From the NCBI GenBank assembly GCA_051003195.1, contig JBPCLP010000008.1, positions 28,154 to 92,153 on the forward strand: DNA of 64,000 bases, written 5' to 3'. This document shows positions 51,843 through 64,000 of the stretch, in pieces. Both the position numbers and the translations under genes were made by a program. This DNA is from Candidatus Sumerlaeaceae bacterium (GTDB lineage Bacteria; Sumerlaeota; Sumerlaeia; Sumerlaeales; Sumerlaeaceae). Position 1 is the stretch's first letter, and each line of letters starts with the position of its first letter. The notes beneath the pieces are model-generated. The model was given only the letters and a program-made list of their open reading frames with translations, ran no database searches and had not been told where the DNA came from.

Positions 51843-51859
51843 TGCGGTGGCCCAGGCTT

Positions 51860-52975
51860 TCAGTTCTGCCTGGCGGCTTCCTGCTTTCGACTCTCGATTT
51901 CCACCATCGTCGCGCCCGCCTGCTCCAGCAGCTTCACATGGCGCGCGCGAAATTCCTTTTCCCCATTCCGGGTATCGAAGTATAATACACCACGGCAGTC
52001 GTCTCCCTTGAGAAGGGGTACCGCGATATACCCGTTTACGCGAAGCGCGACCATGCTGGCGCTGGGGCCGACGTCTTCCACGCGATCGTCGTCCGCCATT
52101 GCGTTACTAATGGCACGCTTGCGCTTAAATGCAATCGTGGCGGCGGTCAGCGGTACAGGGTGCGCGCGCTCGTAGCCCGACCACGAAAAAGCATCACCGA
52201 CCTGGTTACGAATGACCCAGCGACCGGTCTTTGAATTTTGAATCATCAGGAATCCGTAGTCGGCATCGACTGCCGCGCGGAGGCGCATAAGCATGCGTTG
52301 AAAAACAAACTCAAGTGAGGCTGGTTTCAAAAGTACCTCTTCGAGAAGCGAAGCCATCTGGCGCGAGACCCAGACAAGATCATCCGCATCTTCCGGCGGA
52401 GCCGCGTCTTCGCTTTGCGTTTTCTGCAAGGCCGGAAGCATCTTTGGCCTCGTGGGCAGTGCGGCTGGTGTTACCGGTTCCCTGTTCGGCTGCTCTGTAG
52501 CCTGGCCATTATCCTTCTTTGCGACGGCTGCGTTCGCTTTATCGCCACCGAGGGAGTCGCGTACACGGATGGACTCGGAACGAACGATCTCGGACGCCCG
52601 CTTCCACTCCTCTTTCTCCACCGCCTCTTCTTCGAGGCAGAACAGCAACTGGCTGTTACCGATACGGATATCGTCTCCATTGGCCAGAGGTCTCTCCTGG
52701 ACAATTTTGCCATTCACACGCAGGCCGCCTTCACCGCCAACGTCGCGCACGTACCAGTTGCCGCGGCTAAAGTAAAATTCTGCGTGGCGATCGCTCGTGC
52801 CCAACTCCGGCACCTCGATCGCATTGTGTTTCCCACGGCCCGCACTTTGGACCTTCTCTTGATCCAGCGGATAAGTGCATGCCCAGTTAATTGCAGGAAT
52901 GTCGACGATCAGTTTCGCGTTCAAAAAACCAACTCCCGAAAACGGATCATTAAAATCTGCGACGCCGAGAACCAT
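51860..52975 (-). CDS. FHA domain plus GAF domain protein
   Basis: N-terminal FHA (GRGKHNAIEVP...SDRHAEF...NGKIV). C-terminal GAF-like region. Confidence 0.7.
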   Translation of the reverse strand: MVLGVADFNDPFSGVGFLNAKLIVDIPAINWACTYPLDQEKVQSAGRGKHNAIEVPELGTSDRHAEFYFSRGNWYVRDVGGEGGLRVNGKIVQERPLANGDDIRIGNSQLLFCLEEEAVEKEEWKRASEIVRSESIRVRDSLGGDKANAAVAKKDNGQATEQPNREPVTPAALPTRPKMLPALQKTQSEDAAPPEDADDLVWVSRQMASLLEEVLLKPASLEFVFQRMLMRLRAAVDADYGFLMIQNSKTGRWVIRNQVGDAFSWSGYERAHPVPLTAATIAFKRKRAISNAMADDDRVEDVGPSASMVALRVNGYIAVPLLKGDDCRGVLYFDTRNGEKEFRARHVKLLEQAGATMVEIESRKQEAARQN

Positions 52976-53020
52976 ACGTCAAAGCCAAACATCACCCCAC
53001 TGTCAGCGTTGCGAGGGTGG

Positions 53021-54250
53021 TCATATATCCTCAGCAGGTTCGGGCGGCTCCGGCAGGATCAATGTCATTGTTGAATTGGCATCGCTGGACGCTGGCATAA
53101 ATGCGTGAAAGTAGATCCATGGATCTCCCGAGGGAGTAGTCAGGTGAAGTTTACCTGACCTTGGAGCAGGCACTCGTGGCATCACGATGTTTTCGTCGGT
53201 CAGCAGATTGTACCACGTGGCAATGAACTCAGGCCTGTCTTCCGCGTTGGCCGGCAGTTGCATATCGCCGTTGAAGTTGCGCAGTGGGAAGACGGCAAAC
53301 ATAAACCCATCGGCGATGATTGCACCAAACATGCCCCGCTGCGCTAACTCGGGTGCCAGCCGAAACTTACCGCCGAATCGACGGGGTATACTGGACAGGC
53401 TGCGTATGTTGCGCCACGCCGCCCGGTGGTCCTTCGAACCTGTGGTTGAAAGGGCATTACCGTACTGAATGCCGGCTGCCCCCGACCCTAACCAGAACAG
53501 TTCCCGGAAAATTTGCGGGCGGTCTGTTTCGAGCAGGATCGGCATTTGCCCCAGTTTCGCGCGAAGATACGACAAGGTTGCCTGCCCGGCATACTGTGGG
53601 GGTATTGCCGCGTCATTTACCACCGCAAAATCACCGCGCCGCGCCGGCTCGAAATCGGATTCACGGCGGCAGACGTAACCAACCAGCGCTCTGGGCAGGG
53701 CCGCGTCAAAAGCTTTGAGAACAGACGCGGCTTCTGTGTTCGACGGAAGCTCCAAACTAAACATTGGCGGCGCAGCATCATTACCGAGTTTCGCCGCGAA
53801 TACCTGGGCGAACATTGGCCACGAGATATCATGATTGCGTAGCTCAGTTGCCAGTGCGCTCGTCACTCTGCAGTCCGTCATTACACCATATCGCCCGGCC
53901 TCGAAAATGGAGGCGGTTAGTCGCAGCCAATACCCAGCCGGTCGCGTCGATTCCGCATCCGCGCCGGCAGGCGAAAACTCGTAGTTCGATTCGTACAGGT
54001 GTATGACCTGCCCGTCGGTCTGACGTTCTTCACCGTAAGCGAAATTGGCAGCCTGGCGCGTAACGGTCGTGTGAAACGATGCCCGGCCGCTGTTGCCCGG
54101 GGAAAATATGGCAGCTTGTGGATCGTGTGCAAACCTAAGGCGTGTCGGATCTCCCGCCGAAAGCTGCTGCGCAGAAACATGCAGCGGAAGGAACAGGCAA
54201 AGCAGCAGCAGGAGTTTCCCGCCGGGACGACGACACACGGGCCGTTTCAC
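53021..54250 (-). CDS. secreted hypothetical protein (409 aa)
   Basis: Signal peptide (LLLLLCLFLPLHVSAQQ). Start overlaps the methyltransferase stop (ATGA). Confidence 0.55.
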   Translation of the reverse strand: MKRPVCRRPGGKLLLLLCLFLPLHVSAQQLSAGDPTRLRFAHDPQAAIFSPGNSGRASFHTTVTRQAANFAYGEERQTDGQVIHLYESNYEFSPAGADAESTRPAGYWLRLTASIFEAGRYGVMTDCRVTSALATELRNHDISWPMFAQVFAAKLGNDAAPPMFSLELPSNTEAASVLKAFDAALPRALVGYVCRRESDFEPARRGDFAVVNDAAIPPQYAGQATLSYLRAKLGQMPILLETDRPQIFRELFWLGSGAAGIQYGNALSTTGSKDHRAAWRNIRSLSSIPRRFGGKFRLAPELAQRGMFGAIIADGFMFAVFPLRNFNGDMQLPANAEDRPEFIATWYNLLTDENIVMPRVPAPRSGKLHLTTPSGDPWIYFHAFMPASSDANSTMTLILPEPPEPAEDI

Positions 54251-55011
54251 CGTTTCTTACCTATCAGTATGAGACGGGGCGATTTAATGGTCCATTTTCC
54301 GCCACTGTAATTCCCGAGCACAGACTGCACGGGTACACCTGCCGTGTTCATCATCAACTCCAATTCGTCTGGCGTAAACAGCCGCACACTTTCATGGAAT
54401 TGCTTTCTTTCTCCCGCGGAAGAAACTGCAATGGTCTCCTTGTTTACGCGTAGCGGGTTGCTGGAGATCCAGCGCCTTTCCTGGACCGTGCAACCTTTTG
54501 TAGATTGGCGGATGGACTCCGGCTTAAGTTCCATGCGCACGCGAGCTGCGTTCATGAAATCAATCACAACAAATCCTTTGCTGCGACACACGCGCGCGAG
54601 TTCGTGCAGCACGGCGGCGTTCTGCGCATCGGTGTCCAGGTAGCCGAAGCTGGAAAACAGATTGGCCACCAGCTCGAAGCTGTCGTTCTTCAGGGGCAGG
54701 TCCCGAAGATCTGCGCGCAGGTAGCACGGCGACGGGGCACCTGGCAGATTTGACGTGGCAGCCACATCGAGCAGGTCACGGCTTAGGTCGATCCCGATGG
54801 CACGCATTTCCGCCAAGGCAAATGCACGGGCATGCCGCCCCGAGCCACAAGGAGCATCCAGAACGCGCGAGTTTTTTTGGAGCAACGCAACCCTGATGAG
54901 CAGTTCAACTGCCAGTTTCGCCTCTGCCTCATCGCGATGTTCGTAGAGCGATAAGTATTCGGCACCAAATGCCGAGCGGAACCACTCACTCATTCGTCGC
55001 GGCCATTTCAA
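54247..55011 (-). CDS. class I SAM-dependent methyltransferase
   Basis: Motif I VLDAPCGSGRH, motif post-I GIDLS, motif II. Confidence 0.8.
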   Translation of the reverse strand: MKWPRRMSEWFRSAFGAEYLSLYEHRDEAEAKLAVELLIRVALLQKNSRVLDAPCGSGRHARAFALAEMRAIGIDLSRDLLDVAATSNLPGAPSPCYLRADLRDLPLKNDSFELVANLFSSFGYLDTDAQNAAVLHELARVCRSKGFVVIDFMNAARVRMELKPESIRQSTKGCTVQERRWISSNPLRVNKETIAVSSAGERKQFHESVRLFTPDELELMMNTAGVPVQSVLGNYSGGKWTIKSPRLILIGKKR

Positions 55012-55885
55012 AGAACGATGTCACCCGAGATGACGAACCAGCGGCGGGACTTTGTCGAGCCACCCGCAGCATTTCCGCAATGAACTCTTCGGTTGGTTCT
55101 ATTGGTGCTTCAACAGCTCCACCGGCCTTCAGGAGTTGATGCGCGCGGAAGTGCTTCTCCTGCTCATGCAGTTTGGTCACCCACATCGGGCGATTTAATG
55201 CCCGTAGCTTTCGCACAGTATCAACCGTGCCACCGCGAGTTCCGGTTTCTGCGATGAACGAGCCGCGGCAGAACGCAGCCACGAGTGAATTCCGACGTAG
55301 AAAGCACCAGGGCTGCACTTTGGATCCAGGCGGAAACGGCGACGCGATCAGCACCCGCCCACCAGGCGGAACATTAAACGAAGGAACAAACTGTTCAATG
55401 GGTGTGGGTGGAAAAACAACTGTAGCTCCTTCGGCTTTCAGCGCTGCATCGTGTGCGCCGGCATCAACACCCGGAGCATTGCCGCTCACGACAGCAATAT
55501 CACGTTTCGCAAAAGCGCTCGCATAATTACGCGCGGCGTTTCGTCCGGTGGCGGACGGTCGACGTGTCCCGATGATCGCCATCGCTTCTGTGTTAAAAAG
55601 CTCCAGTTGCCCTATTGCATACAACACCGGTGGAGTATTGTCTCCCAGTGCATCCAACAGTCGCTTTGGATAGGCAGAACAGCCCAGCGGTATGACGTGA
55701 ACATCGTTATCGAGTATCCATTTGGCGAGCTGCCTGCTCTGTGCGCTGGGGGTGCTGCCCGGGTGCTGATTTGGCAACGATCCCTCCGAACCCGGTCGTT
55801 CCAGCCTGAGAAAGTCCGCAAGCCTGGTCTCCCCCAGTTGGCGATGCTGCTCGATCCAGGCAGCAAGCTGTTGTGCAGCACTCAT
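54986..55885 (-). CDS. dprA: DNA-processing protein DprA (Smf family)
   Basis: Block PVLYAIGQLELFNTEAMAIIGTRRPS...AVVSGNAPGVDAGAHDAALKAEGATV matches the DprA Rossmann core. Confidence 0.75.
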   Translation of the reverse strand: MSAAQQLAAWIEQHRQLGETRLADFLRLERPGSEGSLPNQHPGSTPSAQSRQLAKWILDNDVHVIPLGCSAYPKRLLDALGDNTPPVLYAIGQLELFNTEAMAIIGTRRPSATGRNAARNYASAFAKRDIAVVSGNAPGVDAGAHDAALKAEGATVVFPPTPIEQFVPSFNVPPGGRVLIASPFPPGSKVQPWCFLRRNSLVAAFCRGSFIAETGTRGGTVDTVRKLRALNRPMWVTKLHEQEKHFRAHQLLKAGGAVEAPIEPTEEFIAEMLRVARQSPAAGSSSRVTSFFEMAATNE

Positions 55886-55980
55886 GCCATGCGTTAAACC
55901 GCCACTGTCGCAGCCAAAGCGAGCGAAAACGCGAAAAGTTTAGCATTGCCTGCGCGTGCGCCGTTGGCCGAACTAGCAGG

Positions 55981-56766
55981 GTGTCGAGAGAGAATAACCG
56001 CGTATGGCAGCTCGATGCATATACCGTCGCCCTGGGCGAGAGCGCGCCCGACGGCCGAATCCTTGCCCGACAAATTGCCGGAATCGGCGCCCGTTTACTC
56101 GCCGGAACGATTGATTGCATTGTGCAGTCTATTTTTGCGACGCTGGCGGTAGCGGCTGTTTACTGGTCCCACCCCGAGTTCGTGCGTCCGCAGGAGCGAA
56201 TGTGGCTTTTTATCGCCGCCGTGGTCGAGTGGCACGTCCTGTACTTTATGCTCTTCGAAGCGTTCACGTCGGGCAGAACCCCGGGTAAAAGCATTGTGGG
56301 CCTCCAAGTCGTGGATGCGCGCACCGGCGGCCGGGCCAGCTCGCTCCAGTTGCTGGGGCGCAATCTGTTCCGAGCCATCGATCTGTTGCCTGTCCATTAC
56401 CTCGCCGCAGCACTTAGCATGGCAATGGGACCGGCACGACAACGCCTCGGCGATCGCATCGGTTCCACGTGTGTGATTTATGTGCGAAGTCTGGTCGAGC
56501 AACTCCACGCCGCCAATGTCCCCGCGAGCAATTTTTCCACCTCAGACGACGGCTACCTGCTGCAGGCCTTTGTTCAGCGATTGCCCGGCATCCACGAAAA
56601 CATGCGCCCGTTCCTGGCCCGCGAGACGGCGCGCTATTTCCAGAAAAAATATCCTGCGGCCGAACCCGGCCTCGTAAGGCTTTACGAGGAAGAGCAATAC
56701 GACCAGTATTTGCAACGCCTCTGCCGCGAAGAGACCGCCGCCGCCGCGCTCCACTTGGACGAATGA
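55981..56766 (+). CDS. RDD family membrane protein (GTG start inferred; the track ORF begins at 55873)
   Basis: RDD-domain layout: TM with the R/D/D triad (GRTPGKSIVGLQVVDARTGG...FRAIDLL). Divergent from dprA. Confidence 0.6.
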   Translation: MSRENNRVWQLDAYTVALGESAPDGRILARQIAGIGARLLAGTIDCIVQSIFATLAVAAVYWSHPEFVRPQERMWLFIAAVVEWHVLYFMLFEAFTSGRTPGKSIVGLQVVDARTGGRASSLQLLGRNLFRAIDLLPVHYLAAALSMAMGPARQRLGDRIGSTCVIYVRSLVEQLHAANVPASNFSTSDDGYLLQAFVQRLPGIHENMRPFLARETARYFQKKYPAAEPGLVRLYEEEQYDQYLQRLCREETAAAALHLDE

Positions 56767-56833
56767 GAATGACCCGGCACTCCAGAAATGAATACGGAAC
56801 GTTTACGGCGCTAAGGTAACGCGCTCAACCGGA

Positions 56834-56911
56834 TCGGGGCGTAGCGTAGCCCGGTTATCGCGCCTGCCTTGGGAGCAGGAGGTCGCAGGTTCGAATCCTG
56901 CCGCCCCGACC
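56834..56911 (+). tRNA. tRNA-Pro (anticodon TGG)
   Basis: Cloverleaf read by hand: acceptor CGGGGCG/CGCCCCG, anticodon stem CCTGC/GCAGG with loop CTTGGGA (U33-UGG-G37), T-loop GGTTCGAATCC, encoded CCA. Confidence 0.85.
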
Positions 56912-57039
56912 AGTAACAACTCCTTCCGAAATGCCAAAAAAGGCACAAAACGCACGAAATAGAACCACGCGAATACCTCTTTCGATAGTAAGGAGCTGAT
57001 GTCCATCCGATCTCGCCCGAGCTGCTGCAACCGGAGGTT

Positions 57040-58452
57040 TTAATCCTTCGTGTGCAGGTAATGCATTCCCCAGCCGAGTTCCTCATTTCGGGTGCTACCG
57101 GTGCTGAAAATGCTGTCACCTCCGCCTAATGCATAGATTCTTTCGTTCACAACACAGGCTGCGAAGCTATGGCGAACCGTTGCAAGTGCCGCACCCTGGG
57201 TCCAGGTGTCGCTCGCTGGATCATAGACGTAGGTGTCCTGGGATATTTCGCCACCCGAACTGCCACCAAACGCATAGACTTTTCCACCCATGCCCACGAC
57301 ACCTAAGTTGTGCCTGGCAATCGGCATGGGGGACTTCGACGTCCACGTGTTGCTGCCGGGATCGTATTCCTCATTGGCTCCGGTATAAGTGGGCGACGCT
57401 CCAATCAACCCGCCGATGACGTAGATTTTTCCATTCACGGTGGCCGCGCCTGCTCCCTGCCGCACCGCCAGCATCGGTGCCAGCGGCGTCCAACTGTTGG
57501 ACACAGGGCTATAGGCTTCCGTGCTGCCCAGCGAGTTAAGAGCGCTGTCACTACCGCCAAATACGTAGATCTTGCCGTCGGAAACAGCCGCTGCGGCGAA
57601 GCTCCTGCCGACCGACATTGCCTGGGCGGGCGCCCATGCGTTTGTGCCGGGGTTGTACACCTGGTTCGTAGCGACAGCGACACCGGCAGATCGCCCGCCA
57701 ATGGCATATATCAGCCCATCCACCTGGGCACAACACAACCCCACACGGTTGTCTGGTGTGGCCAGCGAGCCCCAGCTGCTGGCAGCCGGGTTGAAGACGA
57801 GGTTATAGGGCGTGCTGCCGACGGCGCCAATGGCATACACTTTTCCAGCGGCCGATGCTGCCGCAAGTTGGGACATCGCAACCGGCATGGGAGGCCGCGT
57901 TTGCCAGCTGCCGAAAATGGCGCCGGTACGCGAAAAGCCGGCTGGCGCCGTCGCGGTGTTTCCCACGATCGCATAGCCGGCGGGAGTGCCATTCAGCGCG
58001 CTGTCTGCCACGTCGGAGTTGAGCGCCCGCACCGCAAACGGTACCGACTCCAGGCGTGTGGGCGGCAGTACGACATTTTGGGGAAGGTTGGCGTCAACGG
58101 CGACCTGCAGAAACATGGGCTCGTTGGTTACAAAGGCGGCGTCAGTCAACGGGCCCCCGAACAGAACGGTGCCCGTGCCCACGGTATGGTTCACCACGCC
58201 ATTACTCACGTTTAAAGCGGCTTGCTCGCCAAACACCTGGGTACCGGGCGATGGACCCACGCCCGCCGCACCGCGCCAGATGGAAAAGAAAAGCGTATGG
58301 GTGCTCTCCAGCGCACTGCCACCAGCACCCGTCAGCTTTGCCTGGTAATTGATACGCACCGGCTGCGTTGCTGAAGCGCTGACGCAAAACATTATGAAAC
58401 ACGCTGCGAGACATTGTACCGACGCTCGGCCGCCATTTCCGTGAATTCCCAT
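57040..58452 (-). CDS. secreted Kelch-repeat beta-propeller protein
   Basis: Signal peptide. Repeated Kelch motifs (GKVYAIGA, GLIYAIGGRS, GKIYVFGG, GKIYVIGG, GKVYAFGG, ERIYALGG) with W/Y spacing. Confidence 0.8.
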   Translation of the reverse strand: MGIHGNGGRASVQCLAACFIMFCVSASATQPVRINYQAKLTGAGGSALESTHTLFFSIWRGAAGVGPSPGTQVFGEQAALNVSNGVVNHTVGTGTVLFGGPLTDAAFVTNEPMFLQVAVDANLPQNVVLPPTRLESVPFAVRALNSDVADSALNGTPAGYAIVGNTATAPAGFSRTGAIFGSWQTRPPMPVAMSQLAAASAAGKVYAIGAVGSTPYNLVFNPAASSWGSLATPDNRVGLCCAQVDGLIYAIGGRSAGVAVATNQVYNPGTNAWAPAQAMSVGRSFAAAAVSDGKIYVFGGSDSALNSLGSTEAYSPVSNSWTPLAPMLAVRQGAGAATVNGKIYVIGGLIGASPTYTGANEEYDPGSNTWTSKSPMPIARHNLGVVGMGGKVYAFGGSSGGEISQDTYVYDPASDTWTQGAALATVRHSFAACVVNERIYALGGGDSIFSTGSTRNEELGWGMHYLHTKD

Positions 58453-58663
58453 GAATCGCCCCCGGCTCTGATTTTAAAAATTATAAAATCGGCGGCATTC
58501 CAGTGTCAATCACGCAGAGGCGCGATCATGGGGCAGCGTCGAGCTAGGTTAAGATCGGGCGACAAATACCTGCTGGCATCAGGATCCTGGACTGGATTCT
58601 TCTCCATGTAGATCCCCTCGAAGTCCGGGGGGTAGAGGTGTCAGGGAAAAAGCTGGCATGCTG

Positions 58664-58802
58664 AAAGCGGTACTAAAGTACGCGCATTCGCCCACAGCCG
58701 ATGTTCAGGCCAAATCTCCGCACCAGCTGTAAGCCCTCCCCGGATTGTAAACAAACCATAGCGCGCAGCGCTTTGGAGTGCGCGTACTTCAGTACCGCTT
58801 TC
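58664..58802. repeat. 24-25 bp imperfect inverted repeat pair flanking an 88-bp spacer
   Basis: Left arm GAAAGCGGTACTAAAGTACGCGCAT, right arm TGCGCGTACTTCAGTACCGCTTTC. 23 of 24 positions complementary. Confidence 0.75.
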
Positions 58803-59496
58803 CACTAATCTTCAGATAAACGTCCATGCCGTCGCTGCAGACGGAGAGCATATACCGCATCCCCGGAAACAAACCCGGTGCCCTGATTGTCGCGGTGAAG
58901 AACATGGTGCGGACAACCGGCGATGACCACCCTTGCTCGACGTTCCATGGTATGGGACTTCATTTTCGTTGTCATGGACTAATGAAGTTCTGGGCACGAC
59001 CCATGACACGTCGTTATAGACCGGGACCAGGCCCATACGGTGCAGCGCATGAGCGAGCATGGCAGTAGCCTTCGAGGACGGCGAGGGGAGCTTCGCGCTC
59101 GGCGCCGTAGAAGAAGGTTCGGGCGCGGCTTACCGCCGGGACTGATGAGTTGCCAAATCCTTGCAGATACTCATGCCCTGCCTGCTCACCAGCTATTTTA
59201 TACAGAGCGTCGAGCATCTGGTGATAGCGTCTGTGGCCGACAAACTGAAATGGGTAGCGAAGTTGCTGTGTCGGGCCAGGATTAGGTTTTGAGGTGACAG
59301 GTTATGCATTGATTCCAGCTGCATGCATCCTGTAGCTAATTTGGTGTGGCTGGATAGGCAAGAGTTGTTGTTCCGGGTTACCCGTACATCGTCCTCTGAT
59401 CGTGCCCACTTATTCTGACCGCCGAATCGCTCCGCTTTAGGCAAAGCCAAAGCAAGCTTTCGCACCAAAGCGGCTACGCCGCCGGGGTTGTTCGGA

Positions 59497-59610
59497 CGGG
59501 GTGCAGGGTTCACGTCCCGGGTTCAGGGTTCGCGGTTCACAGTTAGGATTGAGGGTGCAGGATGTGGGGTCGGGGTTCAGGACTCGGGTTCGAACCAGGG
59601 CTCACGGTGA
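59497..59610. repeat. degenerate GGGTTCA-type heptamer tandem array (G-run rich)
   Basis: GGGTGCAGGGTTCACGTCCCGGGTTCAGGGTTCGCGGTTCACAG...GGGGTCGGGGTTCAGGACTCGGGTTCGAACCAGGG, about 35-45 bp upstream of the ATG at 59644. Confidence 0.7.
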
Positions 59611-59643
59611 CCATAATCTAATCGACAATGGGATCATTCCGAT

Positions 59644-61431
59644 TTGAATCATCGCATGTTCTTACAGCAAAGACTCCCGTACCTCGTCATTGGCATGGTC
59701 GCCCTATGCGCGATCGCGCAGGCGGAGTGGCGCAATGCACTTGTGTCGCTGGCCGAGCCGTCAGACCCGGTCACCCTGGTCAGCCGCGCAAAACCTGCCG
59801 GGCATATTCAGTTGCCGCCCCGGCCCACGCCGCAGGAACGAAAAGCCGCTGCCGATCTCCAGCATTGGATCGCGCAGATTACCAGTGCTACGCTGCCCAT
59901 TAAGAAATCCGCTCGCGGTGCGGTTGTCAGCATCCGCACCGATGACGCATGTAACGACGAAGAATACCGGATCCAGGTGGATGGCCGTCGCATCCTGTTA
60001 TACGGCGGACGCACGCGCGGTGTTGTAAACGCGGTGTACGCGTTGCTGGAAGAAGACATGGGGTGCCGCTTCTACACGAATGAGTCCATCCGTTTGCCTA
60101 CCACCAGTACCCTGGTTGCCAGGCCGGTTCCGCGGCGGTATGGTCCGCGCCTTAAATTGCGCGATCCGTTTTACTATTGTGCGTTCGATCCTGTGTGGTC
60201 GCTGCGCAACCGCACCAACGCACCCGATGCGAAGGTACCGGAGGCGCACGGCGGGCACGTGGACTATGACAACATGTTCGTCCACACAATGGACAAGCTC
60301 GTCTCGGCAACGGTCTATTTCAAGAAGCACCCCGAATACTTTGCGCTTCAGCCGGACGGATCGCGCAATCCCATTGCCCTGTGCGCCACCGAGCCGAAAG
60401 TTGCGAAGATCGCGATCAAAGCGGTGCGCGACATTCTTCGCCGCAACCCCAATACCGAAATCATCAGCGTCTCGAAGAACGACACCACGGTCGTCTGCCA
60501 TTGCGAGCGCTGCAAAAAGCTACGCGATGCCGAAGGTTCGGACATCGCTAATCAACTGGTGCTGGTGAACAAAATCGCGGACGCCATCGCCGCCGATTAT
60601 CCGCGGGTTACCATCGACACGCTTGCGTACCTTGAAACCATCCAGGTCCCGAAAACGGTGCGCCCGCGAAAGAATGTGGCCATCCGCCTGTGTAACGATG
60701 CGGTCGGTGCCTGGACTTACCCTTTCCGACCCGCCGAGCAGTGCGACATCGCGAAGCTCGCATCTGCCTGGGCAGCGGTGCACCATCGCATCTACATCTG
60801 GGACTATAACGTTAACTTCAGTCATTACCTTGCGCCGATGCCCAACCTCGATATCATGGCGGCAAACATACGCTTCTGGATCCGCAACAACGCCGAAGGC
60901 GTGATGTTGCAGGGAGGCTACCAGGGCGCTGCCGAGCAGGATCACATGAAGTGCTGGGTGACTGCCAAACTCATGTGGGACGCTTCATGGGATGAGAAGG
61001 AACTTGTGCACGATTTCATCTGGGGACACTACGCCAGCGCTGCACCGGCAATGCAGGAATACGATGACCTGCTGCAGCAGATGCGCGTGGAACATAAGCC
61101 GACGATGGACAAGCCCGCGCAGGGAATCCGGTATCCGATGGACGCGCCGTTCATCACGCGCGATTTCATCACCAGCGCATCGGCGTTGTTCTCACGGGCC
61201 AGGGAACTGGCTGGCGGTGACACGGCGTTGCTGCAACGTATCGAGCGCGCCGAACTTCCGATTCTCTACGTCCAGTGTGAGCGTGGAGCGGAGTTTACAG
61301 GACCGGAATACGCGGCTGTGGTCGATCGGTTCGCACTCGTGGCCCGGCGCGAAAAAGTAAACACGACCCGCGAAGGACCTACAGACCTTGATGCGAAGAT
61401 CGCCGGATACCACGCCAAAGTCAGGAAGTAG
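59644..61431 (+). CDS. secreted DUF4838-like protein (GH20-like N-terminal region, CxCxxC motif)
   Basis: Signal peptide (LVIGMVALCAIAQA). VVCHCERCKK motif and overall size and layout as in DUF4838 proteins. Confidence 0.6.
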   Translation: MNHRMFLQQRLPYLVIGMVALCAIAQAEWRNALVSLAEPSDPVTLVSRAKPAGHIQLPPRPTPQERKAAADLQHWIAQITSATLPIKKSARGAVVSIRTDDACNDEEYRIQVDGRRILLYGGRTRGVVNAVYALLEEDMGCRFYTNESIRLPTTSTLVARPVPRRYGPRLKLRDPFYYCAFDPVWSLRNRTNAPDAKVPEAHGGHVDYDNMFVHTMDKLVSATVYFKKHPEYFALQPDGSRNPIALCATEPKVAKIAIKAVRDILRRNPNTEIISVSKNDTTVVCHCERCKKLRDAEGSDIANQLVLVNKIADAIAADYPRVTIDTLAYLETIQVPKTVRPRKNVAIRLCNDAVGAWTYPFRPAEQCDIAKLASAWAAVHHRIYIWDYNVNFSHYLAPMPNLDIMAANIRFWIRNNAEGVMLQGGYQGAAEQDHMKCWVTAKLMWDASWDEKELVHDFIWGHYASAAPAMQEYDDLLQQMRVEHKPTMDKPAQGIRYPMDAPFITRDFITSASALFSRARELAGGDTALLQRIERAELPILYVQCERGAEFTGPEYAAVVDRFALVARREKVNTTREGPTDLDAKIAGYHAKVRK

Positions 61432-61445
61432 ATGAGCGTGCCTCC

Positions 61446-61475
61446 TTAATCAAAACTAATCAAAACTAATCAAAC
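61446..61475. repeat. 9-bp tandem repeat (TAATCAAAAC) x3.3
   Basis: CTTAATCAAAACTAATCAAAACTAATCAAACA directly after the stop of the DUF4838-like gene. AATCAAACAGG recurs at 61508. Confidence 0.8.
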
Positions 61476-62547
61476 ATTGGCGTCGCTCGTTGGCATTTCA
61501 CGCTTTAAATCAAACAGGCCGATGGGGTAATTTCGCCCTTTGATTTCCGTAATGTTCAGATCATGTCGCCTCCAGTTCTTCTTTTGTTTTTTCGTCGGAG
61601 GCGTGTGAGGCGAGTGCGGATTGCGGAGTACAAGCCGGACTCGGAATCGTCGGCGGTAAGGCACGGCGGGTTGCGTTGTCAGCGTCATCATAATGTCTCC
61701 TTGGTGCTTTCAAGTTCAAGTTGGTAATTTCGCCACTTGAATAGCGGTAATCTTTCTGTAAGGTTTGCTCGTGCCGGCCCAACTCCGCCGCTTCAGTTTC
61801 ATCAGCAAACCAACAGCCTCCGCGAAACCTTCATGGCTGTTGCCTTCGGTTATTTGCTGGAACCCGTCAACCGCAGGCGAGACGCCTGCGCCACGAGGGT
61901 CGGCGGGGTCGGGGAATTGCGTTTGTTTTATCATTATGAGGACCTGTGTAGCACAGGCTTTTGGCTAATACAATTCCCGCACGACCCCTTAGAGACCCTT
62001 CGGGCACCTAAAAGTGCACAGGTTTCGGCTACAGTCGCCCGGCAGCCGCGGCCATGAAAAGAATCTGATCGGGAGCTGACCCAAAATCTTCCGCTGTTTC
62101 CCGGCTGTGTATTAACAAATTAACACATGGCCTGTCCCCTTGTTTCTACCTCGCCGCGGCAGTCATGAACCTCAAGCGCCTGGCGGCGCTGATCACCGCG
62201 CCTGGGGTGCCCAAAAAGCTGCACCAAGCCGCGTTTCCGCTCCTTCAGCGCCTGTTAAGCATATCATTGGAGCCCGATGTGAGTTCTTCGAAACGAAGCC
62301 ACTTCGGCCTTTGCTTCAGATGAACAAGGAACCGGGCCGTATGGGAAAGGGGTTCTTCAACAGCCCCACCGTCCCCGAATTAGCTCAATTAAACATGCCA
62401 TTGGCCGGGAAGTTGCACTATATAATATATATATTCTAGAGTCTACCGGTCCTTATTGATTAGTCATTGGACACCCGGAGGCGACTGGTAAACTAAACCC
62501 ACCGACCAGGTAAGGCGTACCGCGACGGGGTAATTGAGGAACGAATT

Positions 62548-64000
62548 ATGAGACGCTATTTTGCACAGGCCTTTAAAATGGCTCCAATAAACCCCCGAAT
62601 GATGGCGCTTCGGGCATTGGAGCGCATGCTGCTCAGCGTGCTTGTGGTACTTTGCACCAACCTTGCCATGGCTGCTTCATCGGGCTCGGTAGGGTATCTT
62701 GCCGACCAGCAGGTTGATGGCGTCGATGAGCTGTGGAGGGTAGACGCAAAGACTGGACTCCTGAGCAAGGTGAACGCGCCCCTGGTCGCTGGGGGGGATG
62801 TTCTTACCGGTTTGATCAGCCGTAAGGGTTCGGCCATCCTCTATCGTGCGGACCAGGATGTGAACGACATTTACGAGCTCTACTACAAAGACCTGAAGAC
62901 GGGCACTGTAAGCAAACTAAACCCGACGCTGGTGCCCGATGGAGATGTGGATTCTGGTTTCCAGATGGACTCAAAGGCTGCGAGCGTAGTCTACCGGGCA
63001 GACCAGGACGAGACCAGCGTCAGCGAGCTTTACCGGGTGGACCTGAAGACGCGTGTCGTCACTCAATTGAATCCCCCCCTGGCAGTAGGCAGGGATGTCT
63101 CTGATGGTTTTCAGGTTGATCCAAAGGGCACAAGCGTGGCGTACCGGGCCGATCAGGACACGGACGATGTGAAGGAACTCTATCGCGTCGTCTTGAAAAC
63201 TGGCGTGGTGACCAAGCTCAATCCACCTCTTGTATCAGGTGGTAACGTGCGAAATCTGCTGTTCGACTCAAAGGGTGCGAGCATAGTGTACAGGGCCGAC
63301 CAGGATGTGGACGGTGTCTCGGAACTTTACCGAGTAGACCTGAAGACACTTATCGTCAGGAAACTGAATTCGCCGCTGGTCGCCGGTGGAAACGTCTCGG
63401 CTGATTTCCAGATTGATCCAAAAGGTGCAAGCGTGGTGTACAGGGCCGACCAGGATGTAGACGAAGTCTTTGAACTTTATCGGTCCGACCTGAAGACCGG
63501 TGTCATCACAAAAGTGAACCCGCCGCTAATTTCAGGTGGTGACGTCCGGAGTTTCGCCATCGATCCCAAGGGGACAAGTGTCGTGTACAGGGCCGACCAA
63601 AGGTTCGCTGGCGTCATCGAAGTCTTCCGGTTGGACCTGAAGACCGGTCTTGTTGTCAGATTGAGCGAACCAATGCCTCCCGGCGGCGACGTGGTGAGCT
63701 TTCAGATCGACTCGAAGGGTGCGAGTGTAGTTTACGTAGCCGACCAGGACTCGGATGACAGGAATGAACTTTACCGCGCTGACCTGAAAACTGGTCTGGT
63801 AACCGAGCTGAATGCACAGTTGGTAACAGGCGGAAATGTCGTGGATTTCCAGATAGATCCAGGTGGAGCGAGCATCGTGTACAGGGCCGACCAGGACGTG
63901 AACGAAGTTTTCGAACTTTACCGCGTGGACATAAAAACGCGACTGGTGATGAAGCTGAATCAGCCCCTTGTGTTGAACGGTGATGTGCTGGCTTTCGGGG
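62548..64000 (+). CDS. secreted tandem-repeat beta-propeller protein (at least nine 48-aa PD40/TolB-like repeats); 3' end outside the window
   Basis: My own translation. RBS GAGGA sits 7 nt before the ATG. N-terminal signal/anchor (MMALRALERMLLSVLVVLCTNLAMAAS). Then ELYRVDLKTGvVTKLNPPLVsGGDVxxFQIDPKGASVVYRADQDVDEV repeated with a 144-nt period to the window end. Absent from the supplied ORF track, which lists only ORFs with an in-window stop. Confidence 0.85.
   Translation, partial: MRRYFAQAFKMAPINPRMMALRALERMLLSVLVVLCTNLAMAASSGSVGYLADQQVDGVDELWRVDAKTGLLSKVNAPLVAGGDVLTGLISRKGSAILYRADQDVNDIYELYYKDLKTGTVSKLNPTLVPDGDVDSGFQMDSKAASVVYRADQDETSVSELYRVDLKTRVVTQLNPPLAVGRDVSDGFQVDPKGTSVAYRADQDTDDVKELYRVVLKTGVVTKLNPPLVSGGNVRNLLFDSKGASIVYRADQDVDGVSELYRVDLKTLIVRKLNSPLVAGGNVSADFQIDPKGASVVYRADQDVDEVFELYRSDLKTGVITKVNPPLISGGDVRSFAIDPKGTSVVYRADQRFAGVIEVFRLDLKTGLVVRLSEPMPPGGDVVSFQIDSKGASVVYVADQDSDDRNELYRADLKTGLVTELNAQLVTGGNVVDFQIDPGGASIVYRADQDVNEVFELYRVDIKTRLVMKLNQPLVLNGDVLAFG

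Follow-up and report, generated by a model that had tools for sequence, protein, structure and literature searches.

The DNA analysed here (the window) is a stretch of 64,000 nucleotides from a Candidatus Sumerlaeaceae metagenome-assembled genome (MAG) (assembly GCA_051003195.1, contig JBPCLP010000008.1, positions 28,154 to 92,153), and this report concerns the 7.1 kb at its right-hand end (56913-64000) that follow a proline transfer RNA gene, tRNA-Pro(TGG). This gene, at 56835-56912 on the plus strand, was found by ARAGORN and by Rfam (69 bits), and according to both it is the sole tRNA gene in the window. It is followed by a Kelch-repeat β-propeller gene on the minus strand (57040-58452; Pfam Kelch_1, E = 2e-56), a divergent intergenic interval of about 1.2 kb in which no gene was detected (spacer 1, 58453-59655), a plus-strand glycosidase-like gene of the DUF4838 family (PF16126; 59656-61431, in an open reading frame (ORF) starting at 59644 or 59656; Pfam E = 4e-85), a gene-free interval of about 1.1 kb with two AT-richer dips (spacer 2, 61432-62547), and a tandem-repeat propeller gene of the PD40/TolB/DPPIV-N kind on the plus strand, identified by its repeats and a Pfam DPPIV_N match, which runs from 62548 to the end of the window at 64000 and is still open there. 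Signal-peptide-like hydrophobic N-termini were read by eye in the Kelch, DUF4838, and propeller products. This is the order of genes and gaps given in an initial annotation, which had been made from the letters alone and had proposed island-like DNA next to the tRNA gene; ARAGORN, Rfam, Pfam, and the ORFs bear it out.

The coding content of the two spacers was evaluated in all six frames with a codon log-odds model, for which 29 long window genes served as the training set. It was found that no frame of either spacer 1 or spacer 2 gives a coding signal, and that the longest runs without such a signal in the 64 kb, of 1395 and 1440 nt, fall at these two spacers, with no run longer than 855 nt elsewhere. 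A greedy gene map concurs, the two spacers being its longest gaps. The claim that gene-free stretches of 1.1 to 1.2 kb occur nowhere else in the window is thus upheld, and the second gap is indeed AT-richer, although modestly so: the fraction of G and C (GC) falls to 0.48-0.50 at 61300-61750 and 62200-62650, and is 0.54 for both spacers pooled. In the related loci described below, one of about 85 listed intergenic intervals exceeds 1 kb. Searches of Pfam with the small ORFs and six-frame translations of the spacers, at E values up to 10, gave no match; Rfam at E values up to 1 returned the tRNA alone, and thus no known RNA in the spacers; and no second copy of the spacer sequences was found in the window. 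An independent assembly of the read set SRR33880242 (Logan, k = 31) yielded contigs L001, L002, and L003, the first two of which cover window positions 56883-61469, including all of spacer 1, and no gene was called in spacer 1 there either. Decayed neighbour genes were considered as the source of the spacers and rejected, because tblastx and blastn comparisons with 68 fetched loci, including the neighbourhoods of Verrucomicrobiota DUF4838 genes, gave chance-level matches only.

To the left of tRNA-Pro, Pfam matches and synteny define a conserved block (51860-56766) of genes for an FHA/GAF protein, a hypothetical protein of 409 amino acids (aa), a methyltransferase, DprA, and an RDD-family membrane protein. 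The RDD protein has a 100% match named Candidatus Sumerlaeaceae bacterium (record P0001), on an NCBI MAG contig of 232,998 bp that also carries the Kelch record described below. A search with the RDD protein gave 24 matches, and the relatives compared here are five loci obtained from look-ups of these homologues, with RDD identities to the window of 69% (L004 and L005), 61% (L006), and 38% (L007). The order FHA/GAF, hypothetical protein, methyltransferase, DprA, RDD, tRNA-Pro is kept in L004/L005 and L006 and partly in L007. Homology to the relatives in tblastx covers 51855-56921 alone, and in L004, L005, L006, and L007 it ends at the CCA end of the tRNA (56912-56921). The tRNA-Pro is identical over its full length to that of L004/L005, and conservation in the alignment vanishes right after the CCA. 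The block from FHA/GAF to tRNA-Pro is a small, stable island of synteny in otherwise shuffled Sumerlaeaceae genomes.

To the right of the tRNA, every relative has something else: two proteins with no Pfam match in L004/L005; a ferritin, PBP1A, and a protein of 1794 aa in L006; and a NUDIX protein, methionine aminopeptidase (Map), a kinase, and RsmE in L007. These right flanks share nothing among themselves or with the window. No syntenic orthologue of the Kelch, DUF4838, or propeller gene stands next to tRNA-Pro in L004 to L007, which are distant relatives (38-69% RDD identity), no empty site with a matching far-side flank was seen in the relatives, and none of them has an integrase beside the tRNA. 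An identical gene order beside tRNA-Pro in all relatives, which would have refuted the proposal, was not found, and the proposal is not refuted on this count. Variation is just as great at the left end of the block, where no tRNA gene lies: the window has GatB there, L004 a DsbD-like protein, and L006 a periplasmic binding protein. Because this tRNA-less left end breaks equally, the break at the tRNA is in itself no evidence of integration, and between genomes as diverged as these, conserved blocks of about 5 kb are simply usual. The proposal that tRNA-Pro bounds island-like DNA thus holds in that lineage-specific DNA starts at the CCA end, but it loses force in that the tRNA-less end varies to the same extent.

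The DUF4838 product matches the PF16126 profile over its whole length (positions 1-325 of 325), the domain being preceded by a weak GH20b-like N-terminal domain (both from Pfam), and the exact product of 591 aa was also called on Logan contig L002; no solved structure matches the protein by sequence. DUF4838 is the catalytic domain of GH163, as in BT1035, which cleaves complex N-glycans, and of GH185, as in the 6-sulfo-GlcNAcase Sp_0475 (PMC10570127), and the window gene is predicted to encode a secreted GH163/GH185-type glycosidase-like enzyme. The full PF16126 match and the weak GH20b-like domain are shared with BT1035 and Sp_0475, and the signal-peptide-like start would suit a protein comparable to BT1035, which is located at the cell surface (PMC10570127). 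The window protein differs from these enzymes in that a C-terminal F5/F8 module was not detected, and its gene differs from the GH163/GH185 systems in standing alone, outside any glycan-utilisation cluster. In the other phyla, DUF4838 genes lie in tight clusters, with spacers of about 30 bp, together with GHL10, GH38-like, GH43-like, and sulfatase genes, whereas that of the window is isolated. Two Verrucomicrobiota-type loci (L010, 9214-13264, and L019, 4466-16659) contain the DUF4838 homologue inside such glycan-degradation clusters, and L010 also encodes a Reg_prop/Y_Y_Y hybrid sensor kinase and a LuxR-type response regulator. This context is consistent with a role of the family in the breakdown of sulfated or complex glycans.

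Homologues of the DUF4838 protein were collected by scans seeded with exact 8-residue peptides, which miss distant relatives. In the species-representative genomes, which exclude the source genome (a scan there with the RDD protein gave no match), the homologues belong to Verrucomicrobiota (Limisphaerales and others, 58-67% identity), Tepidisphaerales (56-58%), and Armatimonadota (about 52%). A metagenome scan returned 26 loci with homologues 56-65% identical, and in none of these 26 does a tRNA, a Kelch gene, a propeller gene, or any other gene of the window lie near the homologue. In a neighbour-joining tree, the window protein forms a lone branch at the base of the Verrucomicrobiota clade, outside the crown group. 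Other window proteins that have homologues in the DUF4838 loci are merely 23-36% identical to them, and nucleotide similarity to these loci is limited to 59815-61410, within the coding sequence. Taken together, the 58-67% identity to Verrucomicrobiota, the position in the tree, and the confinement of similarity to the coding sequence indicate that the gene was probably acquired across phyla by an old single-gene transfer; as to direction and age, the same comparisons would point to a gain by the Sumerlaeaceae lineage long ago, most probably from a donor of the Verrucomicrobiota/PVC type (Planctomycetota, Verrucomicrobiota, Chlamydiota). With 0.71, the GC at third codon positions (GC3) of the gene reaches the upper limit of the host range, in the direction of its relatives (0.62-0.96, with the three closest at 0.82-0.85). 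Four loci labelled as Bifidobacteriaceae or Akkermansia muciniphila (L045, L047, L048, and L054) have DUF4838 genes that cluster with those of environmental Verrucomicrobiota, and these labels look doubtful and may stem from mis-binning or mis-annotation.

An alternative explanation is that all of the right side is native and vertically inherited, the affinity of DUF4838 reflecting the sparse sampling of Sumerlaeota and the spacers being functional regulatory or RNA-coding sequences. The composition of the region agrees with this: no 1 kb window departs from a GC of 0.54-0.61, and GC does not change abruptly at the tRNA; GC3 is 0.67 for the Kelch gene, 0.71 for DUF4838, and 0.63 for the propeller gene, all inside the host range; and the codon log-odds scores of the three genes are host-like. 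The use of codon log-odds as a test of foreignness was rejected, because Verrucomicrobiota homologues score equally and the test has no power. The window DUF4838 gene also has the highest tetranucleotide correlation (r) with the host among the homologues tested (0.857 versus 0.68-0.84), the spacers hold strong structures and promoter-like and motif arrays that are described below, and the phylum is indeed sparsely sampled, as the 24 matches of the RDD search illustrate. On the other hand, the other shared proteins are only 23-36% identical, far less than the 58-67% found between the DUF4838 protein and those of another phylum; the scans of the metagenome and genome collections yielded no closer DUF4838 homologue; none of the relatives has the Kelch, DUF4838, or propeller gene at this locus; and the spacers match no Rfam family. 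We therefore regard wholly vertical inheritance as quite improbable. As for the compositional shift that the initial annotation had suggested looking for between 57-64 kb and 0-56 kb, GC and GC3 are host-like on the right side and the one departure found is a mild deviation in tetranucleotide usage.

The Kelch_1 profile matches the Kelch product in five stretches, and residues of about 205 to 447 match six-bladed Kelch propellers in the PDB with E values down to 9e-80; the N-terminal region of about 180 aa has no Pfam match. The start assigned by NCBI corresponds to residue 21, at base 58392 (record P0025, Candidatus Sumerlaeaceae, a 100% match). The next full-length homologues are 40-46% identical, and one of them, from another Sumerlaeaceae MAG, is the closest that carries a name. 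Homologues occur in unrelated contexts, at times two per contig, and on these comparisons the Kelch family is judged to be native to the Sumerlaeaceae lineage and present there in multiple copies.

The propeller gene consists of at least eight tandem units with a spacing of 147-150 nt (49-50 aa) and scores 38 bits with DPPIV_N, relative to a cut-off of 22 (E = 1e-9). Its homologues are about 580 aa long and carry PF07676, PF26549, and PF00930, which places the gene among those with PD40/TolB/DPPIV-N blades. The best homologue, 46% identical, comes from a Planctomycetota MAG, the remaining named matches are mostly from Gammaproteobacteria, and none of the matches is named as Sumerlaeota. The gene's own full-length product is missing among these matches, and the Kelch and RDD products of the same contig are present in the corresponding searches; it may be that the source record lacks an annotation of the propeller gene or lists it as a pseudogene.

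The differences in cargo described so far are also those that would be expected if the right side were the tRNA-proximal end of an island integrated at tRNA-Pro that is larger or has decayed, with its integrase and distal attachment (att) site lying beyond position 64000 or eroded, and with the spacers as decayed island genes. In agreement with such an origin, homology to all relatives stops at the CCA end, the cargo differs by lineage, DUF4838 has a cross-phylum affinity and the propeller finds its best matches outside the phylum, gene-free spacers of such length occur nowhere else in the window, and the tetranucleotide signature is mildly deviant. The integrases of islands inserted at tRNA genes normally adjoin the tRNA. 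Here, the neighbour of the tRNA is the Kelch gene, and Pfam searches of the ORFs and of the spacers in six frames detected neither an integrase nor a transposase nor any other gene of mobility in 56913-64000, whether intact or decayed, and hence no remnant of a recombinase. The 3'-end sequence of tRNA-Pro, GGTTCGAATCCTGCCGCCCCGACCA, was searched for as a repeat; with up to 3 mismatches allowed in the terminal 25-mer and up to 2 in the terminal 16-mer, each was found once only in the window, so that the 7.1 kb contain no repeat of the tRNA end. A blastn search of the 7.1 kb against 50,697 phage and 72,556 plasmid records gave no match, and scans of viral contigs with the Kelch protein, the propeller protein, and an arm of the inverted repeat described below returned only a 27% match to a Kelch repeat. 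The idea of a prophage was rejected on the basis of these phage, plasmid, and viral-contig searches.

The relatives also speak against an island: they lack an integrase at the tRNA, and in L006 and L007 the site is occupied by genes with housekeeping functions (PBP1A, ferritin, Map, and RsmE), while the tRNA-less end of the block varies equally and the Kelch family appears native to the lineage. Compared with known tRNA-associated islands, whether P4-like, ICE-like (integrative and conjugative element), or of the pathogenicity-island type, the locus is similar in that lineage-specific DNA begins at the exact 3' end of a tRNA gene, in that the cargo differs among relatives and includes at least one gene that appears to have been horizontally acquired, and in that gene density is below that of the core. 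It differs in the absence, from the visible 7.1 kb, of an integrase beside the tRNA, of a tRNA-end repeat, of mobility or phage genes, and of any clear compositional shift, and in the housekeeping genes that relatives bear at the same junction. Every diagnostic feature of a tRNA island that can be tested within the window is lacking. Therefore, of the island proposed in the initial annotation, the synteny boundary at the CCA and the cross-phylum DUF4838 gene stand, whereas signs of mobility and a clear compositional shift were not found within 56913-64000, and an origin as a larger or decayed island is considered unlikely, although it deserves to be kept in view.

The integrity of the junction was evaluated with the Logan contigs. 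It was found that the left contig, which carries the RDD gene (L003), ends at window position 56863 and that the right contig, which carries the Kelch gene (L001), starts at 56883. Because the assembly breaks on both sides of the tRNA, tRNA-Pro is a hub common to at least two genomes in SRR33880242, and it is flagged here as a possible point of misassembly in the MAG. An assembler might have joined a Sumerlaeaceae left flank to the DNA of another organism through the conserved tRNA, and the branching hub would fit such a chimera, as would the full-length identity of the tRNA in a different species (L004/L005). Relative to the left 56.7 kb, tetranucleotide r is 0.92-0.94 for close Sumerlaeaceae loci, 0.74-0.90 for loci of other phyla, and 0.886-0.894 for the right side; all left-hand chunks score higher than the right side, and some Verrucomicrobiota loci have comparable values. 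However, normal reads and the largest k-mers used by common assemblers are longer than a shared stretch of 78 nt, and such stretches are usually resolved. Furthermore, the right side agrees with the left in GC, GC3, and codon scores, the closest named full-length homologue of the Kelch protein comes from a Sumerlaeaceae MAG, and the DUF4838 protein is at most 67% identical to any sampled Verrucomicrobiota gene and falls outside their crown group. We assign a chimeric join a low probability.

Several sequence elements lie within the spacers. Spacer 1 contains a long hairpin (58663-58802) found by a repeat search, a 140-nt unit with inverted arms of 27 nt (93% complementary) and a loop of 86 nt, which folds as RNA with -66.6 kcal/mol (z = -6.5). 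No other copy was found in the window, in the 68 loci, or in the viral contigs. The junction of Logan contigs L001 and L002 (58772-58801) falls on its right arm. With its terminal inverted repeats and very stable fold, the unit resembles miniature inverted-repeat transposable elements (MITEs) and REP-like (repetitive extragenic palindrome) hairpin elements, but it differs from them in being single-copy, in showing no target-site duplication, and in that no cognate transposase was found. Its identification as a MITE was rejected, because it is single-copy everywhere searched and no target-site duplication flanks it. A minus-strand ORF that abuts the inverted repeat (58805-58975) contains AGCPHHVLHRDNQG, which resembles the N-terminus of COG1943/RAYT Y1 transposases, and was considered as a transposase remnant. 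This was rejected as unsupported, because neither the ORF nor the six-frame translations of spacer 1 matched Pfam at E values up to 10.

In spacer 2, a structured segment with imperfect long-range inverted repeats (61856-62030) was found by folding, and a terminator scan placed a terminator-like hairpin within it, at 61943-61957. The segment folds with z = -3.8 on both strands, z reaches -4.7 in sliding windows, and Rfam gives no match. A perfect 10-nt tandem repeat, TAATCAAAAC, in 2.8 copies (61447-61474, plus strand, Tandem Repeats Finder), stands directly after the DUF4838 stop codon, and Logan contig L002 stops inside it, at 61469. An AT-rich palindrome, ACTATATAATATATATATTCTAGAGT, found by a repeat search and in the sequence itself at 62417-62442, about 105 nt upstream of the propeller gene, would be a candidate promoter region for that gene.

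Candidate signals were also found for the other two genes. A consensus scan located a σ70-type site on the minus strand at 58480-58509 (TTGACA and TATAAT, separated by 18 nt, a 12/12 match), 28 nt upstream of the Kelch ORF, which is probably the Kelch promoter. A 12/12 match is unusual for a phylum with uncharacterised promoters. On the other side of the Kelch gene, past its stop codon, a terminator-like hairpin with a T-rich tail (56951-56971, minus strand) was recognised by consensus scan and is a putative terminator. Upstream of DUF4838, a repeat and motif search found four GGGTKCAGG motifs on the plus strand at 59499-59581, in two pairs with 20-nt spacing and a period of 54 nt; these four, of 13 matches in the window, lie within 83 nt, at 75-155 nt upstream of the DUF4838 start, and may form an array for the binding of a regulator. 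Given these promoter assignments, the three right-side genes would be independently transcribed.

A more speculative explanation is that the 3' side of tRNA-Pro is a recurrent hotspot that works independently of an integrase and receives a different cargo in each lineage; in the window, it would have taken up a Verrucomicrobiota-type cassette of a single GH163-like gene, with the hairpins at 58663-58802 and 61856-62030 as parts or scars of an undescribed mechanism. We consider such a hotspot very improbable.

The reading that we favour, with confidence a little above even, is that the right side is a lineage-specific, flexible segment of the Sumerlaeaceae chromosome that arose by old rearrangement and gene gain and is no recognisable integrative island. 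The segment would have been assembled beside a conserved five-gene block that ends in the tRNA gene, and the DUF4838 gene would be part of what was gained. The spacers would be non-coding DNA that holds the genes' own promoters and terminators as well as hairpin-forming sequence, most likely leftovers of rearrangement or insertion that have decayed past recognition. In this respect, the locus is similar to ordinary synteny breakpoints and flexible regions, since the genes on either side of a conserved block of about 5 kb are non-homologous in every relative, the composition is host-like, and the content here consists of exported and accessory proteins. It differs from them in its two hairpin-bearing spacers of more than 1.1 kb, which are unusual for what is here a compact genome, and in the unusually high cross-phylum identity of one gene.

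Five points weigh against a flexible segment formed in this way. The view ends at base 64000, and an integrase or right-hand attachment site (attR) may lie in the up to about 170 kb beyond. A homology break located exactly at the CCA in four relatives is also what would be expected of tRNA-targeted integration. The species-representative scan found no Sumerlaeota homologue of DUF4838, and its 8-residue peptide seeds miss distant relatives. Compositional tests are weak against donors of similar GC. Finally, the r of 56913-64000 to the rest of the window, 0.886, is the lowest of all 7 kb chunks, the others having values of 0.921-0.963. This low value comes mostly from the spacers (r = 0.64) and the repetitive propeller gene (r = 0.44), and the DUF4838 gene by itself has r = 0.853, which is typical for host genes; the tetranucleotide deviation is mild and ambiguous.

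A drop in gene density next to a tRNA gene, in a poorly sampled phylum, is insufficient to call an island, and the importance of these results is mostly at the level of annotation, with little beyond. The hairpin-bearing spacers might represent a new non-coding element if they were conserved, for which comparative support is absent at present. The likely acquisition of the DUF4838 gene bears on the exoenzyme repertoire of a chitin- and glycan-degrading lineage, the Sumerlaeaceae.

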